This document shows positions 44,008-49,720 of a stretch of DNA of 64,000 nucleotides, piece after piece (the first letter of the stretch is position 1; each line of letters opens with the position of its first letter). Source of the DNA: Myxococcota bacterium. Its GTDB lineage: Bacteria > Myxococcota_A > UBA796 > CAJQPC01. Both the position numbers and the translations under genes were made by a program. The stretch spans positions 96,001 to 160,000 of the forward strand of contig JAZAMN010000020.1 of the NCBI GenBank assembly GCA_036229005.1, in the 5' to 3' direction. The notes below the pieces were generated by a model. It was not told the DNA's origin, searched no databases, and saw only the letters and a program-made list of their open reading frames with translations.

Positions 44008-44049
44008 TTAGCGTCTTGATCGCACTAATCTCCGGACATGGAGAACCCC

Positions 44050-45266
<1,217 letters not shown>

Positions 45267-45270
<4 letters not shown>

Positions 45271-46493
45271 GCGCGGCCCCCGGCGCCCCCCTGGAGTGGC
45301 TGATCATCGGCGGCGGGATCCACGGCGTGCACCTGGCCGTCCGCCTGCTGGCCGAGGCCCAGACCCAGCCCGAGCGCCTGCGCATCCTGGACCCGGGCCC
45401 CGCCCTGCTCAGCCGCTGGCGGCAGTGCTCCACCAACACGGGCATGCGGCACCTGCGCTCCCCCGCCGTGCACCACCTGGACGTGGACCCCTGGGACCTG
45501 CTGGCCTTCGCGGGGGCCAACCACCGCGGCAAGGGCGCCCCCGAGGGCTCCTTCGCGCCCCCCTACTCCCGGCCCTCGGTCGCGCTGTTTGACCGCCACT
45601 GTCAGGAGATCGTCGCGCGCTACGGCCTCCAGGACCTCCACATCTGCGACCGGGCCACCCGCGTGGCGCTGGGCTGTGACCACGTCACGGTCACCCTGGG
45701 CGAGGGCGCCCCCATCCATGCCCAGCGCGTGATCCTGGCCCTGGGCGCCGGAGACCAGCCCCGCTGGCCGAGCTGGGCCATCGAGCTGCAGACCCACAGC
45801 CTGCCCATCGAGCACGTCTTCTCCCCCGGCTTCCGCCTGGATCCAGAGCAGTGGCCGCAGCGGATGGCCGTCATCGGCGGGGGCATCTCCGCCGCACAGG
45901 TCGCCATGCGTCTGGCCGACGCCGGCAAGGAGGTCCACCTGGTCACCCGGCACCCTCTGCGCCGGCACCAGTTCGACAGCGACCCCGGCTGGATCGGCCC
46001 CAAGTACATGCGCGGCTTTTCGGCCACCCCGGATCTGCGCGCGCGCCGCGCCATGATCACCGAGGCCCGCCACCCCGGCTCCCTCCCCCCCGACGTGCAC
46101 CGCGCCCTGCGCCTGGCCATCAGCCAACAGCGCGTTCAGCTCCACCTGGGCCAGCCCCACGCCCACCTCCACCAGGGCCAGATCGTCCTGAACGTGGCCG
46201 AGGACTACTTCCCCGTCGACGGCGTGCTGCTGGCGACCGGCTTCGAGGGCGCCCGTCCCGGAGGCGCGCTGGTGGACGCCCTGGTCCAGAGCCACGCCCT
46301 GCCCTGCTCCGACTGCGGCTACCCCGTGGTCGATCCCCAGCTCCGCTGGCACCCCCGCGTCTACGTCACCGGCCCCCTGGCCGAGCTGGAGCTGGGCCCG
46401 GTCGCCCGGAACATCGTCGGAGCCCGCCGGGCCGCCGAGCGCATCGTCCCCACCGCCATCCAGGACAGCGCGCCCCGGTCCTATTCCACGTAG
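45267..46493 (+). CDS. FAD/NAD(P)-dependent oxidoreductase (N-hydroxylase-like)
   Basis: [30 protein letters not shown]-coupled to CobW. Confidence 0.82.
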
Positions 46494-48124: not shown

Positions 48125-48162
48125 GGGCGGCAGACTACCGCGTTGGGGTGTAGGCTGCGGGC

Positions 48163-48924
48163 ATGCTGCTCTTCGTCCTCGCCTGCGGGAACCCCTCTGT
48201 TCCCGGTGACTCCCCCGCTGACAGCGACAGCGGTGTGGACTCCGATCCCCTGGGCTGCCCCGCCCCCACGCCTCTGGCGCAGGTCGGGGACGCGGAGGAC
48301 TGCCCCAGCCTGGAGCCCGGCCTCAACCGCATCGAGGGCGACGGCTTCCGCTACCTGCTCTCCAAGCCCGAGGCCGACGCCGACGACCTGGAGGCCCTGG
48401 TCTTCCTCCCCGGCGGCCCCGCCGACGCCAACAGCGCGGAGATCAACTACTTCCAGTTCCTGGCCCCCATGGAGGGCGCGAGCGCGCGCTGGGTGGTCGT
48501 CCCCCACACCTGGGACGGCAGCGGCGATCGGGCGGAGGAGGCGCTGGCCAGCCTGGAGCACTTCCAGGGCTGCTACGCCCACGACACGGCCCGCGTGCAC
48601 TTGATCGGGCACAGCTCAGGCGGTCGCGTGGCATACCCCATGGGCGTGGCCCACCCCGATCCCTTCAGGTCCATGACCGGACTCCCCGCTGACTTCGGCG
48701 ACGTCGAGGACACGCTGCTGCAGACCGGCCTGGAGTGCCTGCCCGTGCACCACGTGGTGGGCGCCGACGACGCCGGCTGGGTGGAGGCCGCCGAGGCCAA
48801 CCACGCGCGCATGGAGTCCCTGGGCCTGGACAGCACCCTCAGCATCGTCCCGGACATGGGCCACGGCCCCAACGAAGACTGGGACGGCAGCCTGCTGAGC
48901 GACTACTGGACCGATCTGGACTGA
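48163..48924 (+). CDS. alpha/beta-hydrolase lipoprotein
   Basis: VLAC lipobox; GHSSGG, G.DD, MGH. Confidence 0.82.
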   Translation: MLLFVLACGNPSVPGDSPADSDSGVDSDPLGCPAPTPLAQVGDAEDCPSLEPGLNRIEGDGFRYLLSKPEADADDLEALVFLPGGPADANSAEINYFQFLAPMEGASARWVVVPHTWDGSGDRAEEALASLEHFQGCYAHDTARVHLIGHSSGGRVAYPMGVAHPDPFRSMTGLPADFGDVEDTLLQTGLECLPVHHVVGADDAGWVEAAEANHARMESLGLDSTLSIVPDMGHGPNEDWDGSLLSDYWTDLD

Positions 48925-48933
48925 GGAGACCGC

Positions 48934-49446
48934 ATGCTGCTGCTGTTGTTGGCCTGCACCCCCGAGACCGGCGTCCCCGGCCTGATGGGCAGCGCGCCCC
49001 TGGGCGAGGGCACCCTGGCCCCCGACTTCGAGCTGCCCGACGTGAACCCCGCCTCCGCCAGCTTCGAGGAGCAGGTGAGCGTGTCCCAGCACCTGGAGCG
49101 CGGCAGCGTCTGGTACTTCGGCCACAGCACGTGAGGGGGCTGCCGTAGCCAGTTTGGCTACCTGACCCAGATGCACGACGAGCTGCCCGAGGGCATCGAC
49201 ATCATCGGCGTGAACGAGGAAGGCGAGGAGCTGGGCAACGCCCTGGTGGACTCGGACCTGCCCTGGCTGCAGGACAGCCTGGAGGTCGACGCCTGGGGCG
49301 CCTGGGGCGTGGAGTGGCGCGACGTGATCCTGGTCGACGTGGACGGTGCCTTCGCCGGGCGCACCAACCTGGTCATCCACGACCTGGGCGACCCGGAGAC
49401 CTACGCGGCGCTGAAGGCGGAGATCGAGGCCCTTGCGCCGGAGTAG
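48934..49446 (+). CDS. selenoprotein: thioredoxin-fold (AhpC/TlpA-like) lipoprotein with UxxC; TGA 49132-49134 read as Sec
   Basis: APDFELPD...WYFGHST-U-GGC-RSQ...IIGVN...LPWLQD...WG..W...ILVD; ORFs 48934..49134 and 49171..49446 are in the same frame. Confidence 0.88.
49135..49170 (+). promoter_or_regulatory. bacterial SECIS-like hairpin
   Basis: GTAGCCA-GTT-TGGCTAC (49145-49161); loop begins with GT, 17 nt after the UGA. Confidence 0.75.
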
Positions 49447-49624
49447 TTCTCCGAATCACAAGTTCCGCCCCCCTTCGAGGGTCGGAACTCGTGCTGCAGA
49501 GAACTATTGTTGTCTCCGGGGGACACCCCCGGGAATGCGCCTGGAGGCGCAGCCCCCGCGGGCCCCGCGGGCCCGGGTTCTGCCGGACAGCTCTACAGGC
49601 ACTGTCATGTCGGACCGGCAGAAC
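49444..49624 (+). repeat. multi-hairpin dispersed element, copy 1
   Basis: TAGTTCTC..GAGAACTA stem, CCGGGGG-ACA-CCCCCGG, GTTCTGCCGG..CCGGCAGAAC; homologous to 52150-52347 on the minus strand. Confidence 0.65.
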
Positions 49625-49720
49625 GATTGAAACCCCCACGGGAAGGATTGTCCCAACATTGCGCGTTGTAAAGTGACATGCCGGGCTAGTATTCCTGAGC
49701 CAGAACAAAGGAGTTCCTCC

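Follow-up and report, generated by a model that had tools for sequence, protein, structure and literature searches.

Two open reading frames lie in one frame and are separated by a single TGA (48934-49134, 66 aa, and 49171-49446, 91 aa), as the original prediction for this DNA had noted, and the question raised by the locus is whether they are separate small genes, the remains of one, or a single gene for a selenoprotein, and what such a product would do. The TGA had been predicted to take the place of the first Cys in the CxxC of a thioredoxin-fold protein, giving ...WYFGHST-U-GGC-RSQ... on read-through; this proved correct, as did the positions given for APDFELPD, IIGVN and LPWLQD. The active-site motif of the 170-aa read-through protein is H-S-T66-U67-G-G-C70-R71. 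What look like two short genes are almost certainly a single gene, with selenocysteine (Sec) encoded by its internal stop codon, and, as judged from the sequence and its relatives, there is very little room for doubt that the product of 48934-49446 is a selenoprotein. The features of the locus are collected in Table 1.

Table 1. Features of the locus; positions are those of the window, that is, the whole stretch of 64,000 nucleotides that was analysed.
Feature	Position	Strand	Basis
UxxC thioredoxin-fold selenoprotein gene, 170 aa	48934..49446	+	NCBIfam NF053656 family; read-through translation and AlphaFold model
In-frame TGA, Sec67, first position of U-G-G-C	49132..49134	+	Column comparison with relatives
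Bacterial SECIS, 6-7 bp stem, loop AGUUU with G at +18	49145..49161	+	Covariation; bSECIS model constraints
Upstream alpha/beta-hydrolase-like lipoprotein gene	48163..48924	+	Pfam Abhydrolase_6, E 2.5e-5, just under cut-off
Arg129-Asp130, at the place of the ResA/TlpA cis-proline	49318..49323	+	HMMER alignment: ResA L-P-T opposite W-R-D
Ultra-short uncharged signal MLLLLLA, then lipobox-like Cys8	48934..48957	+	Sequence; lipidation inferred
Shine-Dalgarno GAGGAG, overlapping the stop codon of the upstream gene	48923..48928	+	Sequence

Conservation of the in-frame TGA

The possibility of a sequencing error, with TGC or TGT in the reads, was checked in contigs of runs X2, X3 and X5, which come from two other studies. 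These contigs cross the codon and show no difference there, and the TGA is therefore not a sequencing error; downstream of it they carry four strain SNPs, all of them synonymous. One metatranscriptome contig spans 48951-49191, which is weak support for transcription since DNA carry-over is possible, and the gene was not covered in RNA runs X13 and X10.

The read-through protein has matches in 47 of the 61 genomes of the order, and the family model gave 44 matches over its cut-off, in 38 of the 61. A Cys or Sec had been expected at the U position of homologs; in these 44 relatives the column holds TGA in 40, across seven families, TGC in four, and nothing else. A quick tree of the family, for which no root was inferred, placed two Cys groups among the Sec forms. 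A word-indexed protein search with the read-through protein yielded no match from 87 candidates, and an exhaustive search yielded 688 matches at E <= 0.001. Among the 150 matches listed, 74 span the Sec column, and CxxC is found in 63 of 76 aligned stretches. The other 76 of the 150 do not span the column and are mostly C-terminal halves, and two relatives (P0039 and P0079) terminate exactly before the UGA; the splitting of such genes by gene callers was thus rightly foreseen.

About a dozen of the listed database relatives are devoid of one or both redox residues, which suggests that the domain serves a purpose other than redox chemistry in those proteins; P0002, P0042, P0059, P0061, P0091, P0117 and P0120 belong here, one of them with five tandem domains. 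The same order also holds a second subfamily (L068-L083; 13 TGA, 3 Cys), with the motif U-x-H-C-x-x-Q-A-A-x-L and Lys-Trp-Tyr in place of Trp-Arg-Asp, which scores about 70-90 bits on NF053656, under the cut-off. In two actinomycete redoxins (L093:3001-3099 and L107:3001-3096) the frame ends right behind Y-A-Y-A-S-W, where the first Cys would stand, and these are likely to be further UxxC selenoproteins, to judge by where their frames break off.

The source genome (94% complete, 70% GC) carries selA, selB, selD and tRNA-Sec (selC, anticodon tca), each over its cut-off. Of the 61 genomes searched in the order, 58 gave a selA match and 57 a match to the selB wing domain. One genome (G055, 97% complete) has neither selA nor selB matches and carries the Cys form; three Cys forms occur in genomes with Sec machinery. 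TGA copies are nonetheless present in G018, which has no selA match, and in G047, which has no selB wing match, the missing matches being probably assembly gaps. The SelD at L011:298-2540 is of the Cys type and follows an FAD-dependent oxidoreductase-like domain in a fusion protein.

A screen of the source genome by codon usage and hairpin found 194 in-frame TGAs with coding-like flanks, 21 of which pass, and the TGA at 49132-49134 ranks first. Three further passers are redoxins in which U occupies the catalytic position and the loop follows the UGA at 16-17 nt; in the other 17 the loop lies 21-37 nt away, and most of these resemble ordinary gene junctions. The three redoxins are probable selenoproteins in their own right: a TlpA-like protein with U-P-V-C, a Prx-like one with U-P-Y-C and no NCBIfam match, and a BCP-like one with T-Y-G-U (G000:C16:73480, minus strand; C46:17998, minus; C31:141973, plus; L142, L149 and L150).

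A conserved hairpin downstream of the UGA

The original prediction had placed a 7-bp stem, GTAGCCA/TGGCTAC, behind the TGA, with the G of the loop 17 nt from it. Stem and spacing were borne out, the conserved core being 6 bp rather than 7: positions +11 to +16 pair with +22 to +27 around A-G-N-N-Y, while at the seventh position 25 of 42 Sec genes can form an A-U pair and the remaining 17 have A-C (in these and the following counts of 42 Sec and four Cys genes, L087 was left out as a duplicate of L032). As given in the legend to Fig. 2 of PMC13188914, the bSECIS model has a loop of 3-9 nt, a stem of 4-16 bp, a G in the first two loop positions, a distance of 16-37 nt from the UGA and an energy of at most -7.5 kcal/mol. 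The element lies within the bounds set out in that legend, with a loop of 3 or 5 nt, a stem of 6-7 bp, a spacing of 16-17 and -9.6 kcal/mol.

Two kinds of evidence were discarded. The hairpin is no more stable than shuffled sequences (z -0.67 to +0.55), and a first, loose filter for hairpin plus motif, later superseded by the codon-usage and hairpin screen, is passed by 269 in-frame TGAs genome-wide. The case for the SECIS therefore rests on conservation. Across 28 Sec genes, 94.6% of the cells of the 6-bp core pair, with 13 cells changed on both sides; none of 500 shuffles reaches the observed value, slid registers pair at 20-52%, and RNAalifold, unaided, predicts five of the same pairs. At least five of the six pairs are kept in 39/42 Sec genes as against 1/4 Cys genes, and, by the same measure, in 8/13 Sec and 0/6 Cys genes at the lower-scoring loci. 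Rare codons are held in the stem (U+4), with CGT for 15 of 20 Arg and AGT for 14 of 17 Ser, compared to 8 of 129 Arg and 18 of 185 Ser for these codons downstream in the same genes. The pair counts overstate independence, because the genomes are kin and the hairpin sits in coding sequence.

A reading of the TGA as a genuine stop or as an error, leaving a pseudogene or two separate small proteins, has in its favour that gene callers yield exactly the two fragments and that the hairpin taken alone is within chance. We consider it very improbable: the same-column TGA recurs in 40 genes of seven families and alternates with TGC, the hairpin covaries, the downstream SNPs are synonymous only, the Sec machinery is complete, and a split would cut the fold between its two redox residues. 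The selenoprotein reading of the original prediction stands, with the machinery present, TGA or Cys at the column and the TGA kept in other runs.

Family, fold and active site

NCBIfam NF053656 (redoxin_TUGYCR) matches the read-through protein with 155.1 bits against a cut-off of 100, over profile positions 2-143 of 146, which makes it a member of an already curated selenoprotein family. In the literature searched, no paper was found naming the family or its accession, and Table 1 of PMC13188914 does not list NF053656; the SECIS, export signal and function of the family therefore appear to be undescribed in that literature. That table does hold the predicted classes 'Prx-like thiol:disulfide oxidoreductase' (PF00578) and 'Redoxin family protein' (PF08534). 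Pfam AhpC-TSA matches with 29.9 bits (cut-off 26).

The AlphaFold model of the 170-aa protein has a pLDDT of 93.4, and its best matches among solved structures are of the ResA, DsbE and TlpA type (Z 18-19, rmsd 1.9 over 129-135 residues). The description as an AhpC/TlpA-like redoxin thus holds for the fold and fails at the cis-proline, which is absent, Arg129 standing at the place of the ResA proline. Among the 91 rows of the alignment this column is Arg in 68, and Pro is absent from its top four residues. Since Arg-Asp replaces the cis-proline, the protein is not a plain TlpA; the ResA model NF002854 gives 15.6 bits against a cut-off of 170, the TlpA and DsbE models are also far under their cut-offs, and the BCP model gives 16.6 against 140. 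Kinship with deiodinases was considered and dropped, as only 2/91 members touch PF00837 (best E 0.061).

Export and lipidation

An in-frame stop lies 12 nt before the start (TAA in three genus relatives), and together with the Shine-Dalgarno sequence it fixes the start, so that the signal consists of seven uncharged residues before Cys8. The lipobox pattern [LVI][ASTVI][GAS]C is matched by L-L-A-C8, and the same short type of signal is found in three genus relatives. Under a loose pattern, 37 of 45 family loci show a lipobox-like Cys on the N-terminal side of the domain, and lipoboxes or modules of the dockerin, TSP3, Ig or PEP-CTERM kind are found in other members of the family. Genome-wide, 311 of 1006 short hydrophobic starts are followed by Cys, versus a background of about 1.8%, and domain searches gave four matches to Lgt, two to LspA and one to DsbD. 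On these grounds the protein is very probably exported, and its lipidation at Cys8 appears probable, as the original prediction of a secreted, lipid-anchored redoxin had it.

Short signals of this kind are widespread in the genome, where about 310 ORFs start with an uncharged hydrophobic run of 7-12 residues and a lipobox-like Cys (e.g. those at 48163, 48934 and 43208 of the window). In 52 of the 311 short-signal genes a TANNNT hexamer stands about 6 nt before the ATG and there is no Shine-Dalgarno sequence, as at 48151-48156 before the ATG at 48163, which suggests that the hexamers may be -10 elements of leaderless transcripts. The four Lgt paralogues and two adjacent LspA genes lie at G000:C8:68341-71709, C20:161410, C21:84432 and C52:307977.

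Genomic neighbourhood

The upstream hydrolase-like gene is the probable operon partner of the redoxin gene; their adjacency is kept in L018-L020 only, i.e. within the genus. No neighbour is conserved beyond the genus, and among the neighbours there are neither cytochrome-maturation nor conserved metal-transport genes, so the context gives no substrate. A fusion of hydrolase and redoxin by read-through of the upstream TGA was considered and rejected: that stop is TAA in the three genus relatives, which makes it an ordinary stop, and no strong hairpin follows it. A 187-bp repeat that contains palindromes (49447-49633; 24 BLAST matches in the genome) stands directly behind the stop codon of the redoxin gene, and since six bases replace it in the X2, X3 and X5 strains, it is a strain-variable, REP/MITE-like insertion. 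Further upstream in the window (44038-46493), a CobW/COG0523-type GTPase adjoins an FAD-dependent oxidoreductase, both named from translation only, a pairing of the kind found at zinc-limitation loci.

Proposed function

Taken together, the observations lead us to lean, with modest confidence, towards a product that is a membrane-anchored envelope selenium peroxidase or reductase, made by decoding of the UGA as Sec by way of the hairpin. In the proposed course of events, SelB would bind the hairpin and bring Sec-tRNA to the UGA, a SelB-dependent insertion of which we are nearly certain; the short signal would be lipidated at Cys8 by one of the four Lgt paralogues and then cut by LspA; the selenolate of Sec67 would attack a peroxide or small disulfide, with Cys70 resolving the product as a selenenyl-sulfide; and a relay of the DsbD type may re-reduce the Sec67/Cys70 pair. 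The cis-proline of TlpA and ResA binds substrate strands. Its replacement by Arg-Asp, together with the capacity of selenoprotein P (SelP), the nearest characterised kin, to reduce phospholipid hydroperoxides in vitro (reported in a passage of PMC2397514), argues for a peroxide-type substrate over protein disulfides, and we would give even chances to a peroxidase-like rather than a protein-disulfide reductase activity.

The product could instead be a real selenoprotein that works as a periplasmic protein-disulfide reductase or isomerase of the TlpA/ResA/CcmG type, e.g. on the many Cys-rich surface proteins of the lineage. UxxC at the thioredoxin position, the rank of ResA, DsbE and TlpA as best structural and sequence matches among solved proteins, and the DsbD domain in the genome speak for such a role; the Arg in place of the cis-proline, the scores far under cut-off on the ResA, TlpA and DsbE models, the lack of cytochrome-maturation neighbours and a tree that splits the family from TlpA/Prx controls (described below) speak against it, and we regard it as rather unlikely. 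A role mainly in metal or selenium binding or traffic, in the manner of Sco-like copper handling or of metal capture by Sec and Cys, is more doubtful still. Pfam SCO1-SenC is touched by 39/91 members at E <= 2 (best 1.5e-4, under cut-off), a His stands three residues before U in 53/91, and some relatives are devoid of the Cys pair or are built of tandem repeats (P0002). Sco proteins, however, have CxxxC and a distal His, as opposed to the UxxC spacing found here in 91/91 rows, and no metal-transport neighbours are conserved. A selenium peroxidase or reductase remains the reading that we prefer.

A sister clade resembling the selenoprotein P redox domain

Pfam PF04592 (SelP_N, gathering cut-off 23.2 bits) does not match the read-through protein at E <= 2. 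Six of the 91 rows of the alignment (A3) match it, five of them weakly; the strong one, P0125 (42.4 bits), is a direct match of the query protein (E 3e-10). A true NF053656 member, P0066, passes both cut-offs, with 152 bits on NF053656 and 26.8 versus 23.2 on SelP_N. A further protein, P0157, found via P0125, scores 55.9 bits on SelP_N and has matches in 66 of the 401 genomes of the phylum. The gathering cut-off is passed by P0066, P0125, P0157, P0158 and L110.

The sister clade of Myxococcota selenoproteins was examined through the best 30 loci (L110-L139), one per genome, among the matches of P0157. It sits in other classes of the phylum, and 28/29 genomes of the family f20 match; G390:C182:4349-4870, G108:C40:3083-3661, P0125, P0157 and P0158 are examples. 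Of these best 30 loci, 24 have TGA and six TGC at the same column, the hairpin in the same register is present in 21/24 Sec and 0/6 Cys loci, and the cis-proline column is Lys in 29/30 rows. SelP_N matches all 30 at E <= 1e-4 (best E 8.6e-16), a result to be read with the possibility that the Pfam seed includes bacterial rows; 0/25 other redoxins, used as a control, match at E <= 1. The NCBIfam match most shared by the clade is NF053656, under cut-off in the three proteins with scores, and the clade is apparently without a model of its own. Its profile aligned to A3 with a probability of 99.9 and E 4.8e-36. A quick tree of 53 rows, among which there were no animal SELENOP sequences, split NF053656, the second subfamily and the SelP-like clade from 15 TlpA/Prx controls with an SH-aLRT of 88 (branch not starred).

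PF04592 recovered no family locus in the 61 related genomes and gave two weak, unrelated-looking matches, consistent with weak direct similarity; no chain named selenoprotein P was among the PDB sequence and fold matches; and a search for longer proteins gave five matches, none of them animal. Two natural Cys homologues submitted to the ESM Atlas fell in AhpC-TSA clusters and in no SelP cluster; the top match of one query was an unrelated viral family, and the result is uninformative.

The origin of SelP is described as unclear in a passage of PMC2397514, which names TlpA and ResA as distant kin. A list in PMC7539508 gives SELENOP as unique to multicellular organisms, and passages of PMC3473315 and PMC13188914 on families common to prokaryotes and eukaryotes name them without SelP. 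Bacterial homologues of SelP are the subject of none of the titles and abstracts in the literature searched; the 2019 study of SELENOP evolution by Baclaocos et al. may already note some. One possible explanation for the likeness is that NF053656 and the sister clade belong to a single bacterial lineage of exported UxxC proteins, that no other prokaryotic group stands closer to the N-terminal redox domain of animal SelP, and that this domain probably arose from that lineage. The profile comparisons, the redoxin controls and the 53-row tree speak for an ancestry shared with animal SELENOP and apart from other redoxins. We put the explanation forward tentatively, at somewhat below even chances.

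The gene itself is ordinary, one more bacterial selenoprotein of a curated family split by gene callers. It contributes a firmly supported SECIS, compensatory changes included, for a family without a paper in the literature searched, and it is a handy reporter for whether a seven-residue uncharged signal is lipidated and exported. The interest lies mostly in the sister clade and the SelP question rather than in 48934-49446. If the proposed lineage is real, the origin of SelP, which in humans transports selenium, would narrow from 'distantly related to TlpA/ResA' (PMC2397514) to a specific lineage already using Sec at that place, and the small, soluble members from bacteria could serve as tractable models of the structure and peroxidase chemistry of the SelP domain.

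Comparison with known systems

With its own family, annotated as 'TUGYCR motif thioredoxin fold (seleno)protein', the protein has in common the T-U-x-x-C-R motif and the thioredoxin fold, the motif being TUGGCR here. It also has UxxC and an AhpC-TSA match in common with the catalogued PF00578 and PF08534 selenoprotein classes, entries that are broad Pfam bins. The protein resembles TlpA, ResA and CcmG (DsbE) in the predicted extended thioredoxin fold with a CxxC-type site and in its probable N-terminal membrane anchor; it differs from them in having Sec for the first Cys, Arg-Asp for the cis-Pro loop, an extra N-P-x-S insert after the first strand, and an identity of 17-24%. The PxxxTxxC/U of peroxiredoxins (AhpC/BCP) is absent, with U at the Thr position and no Pro. 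The textbook SPase II lipoprotein signal has a basic n-region and roughly 15-25 residues, whereas the signal here has seven uncharged residues and no basic n-region. As to animal SELENOP, its N-terminal domain (PF04592) likewise has UxxC in a thioredoxin fold and is secreted; its profile matches the sister clade and not this protein, which moreover has no His-rich or Sec-rich tail and is decoded through an in-frame bacterial SECIS, in contrast to the 3' UTR element of SELENOP.
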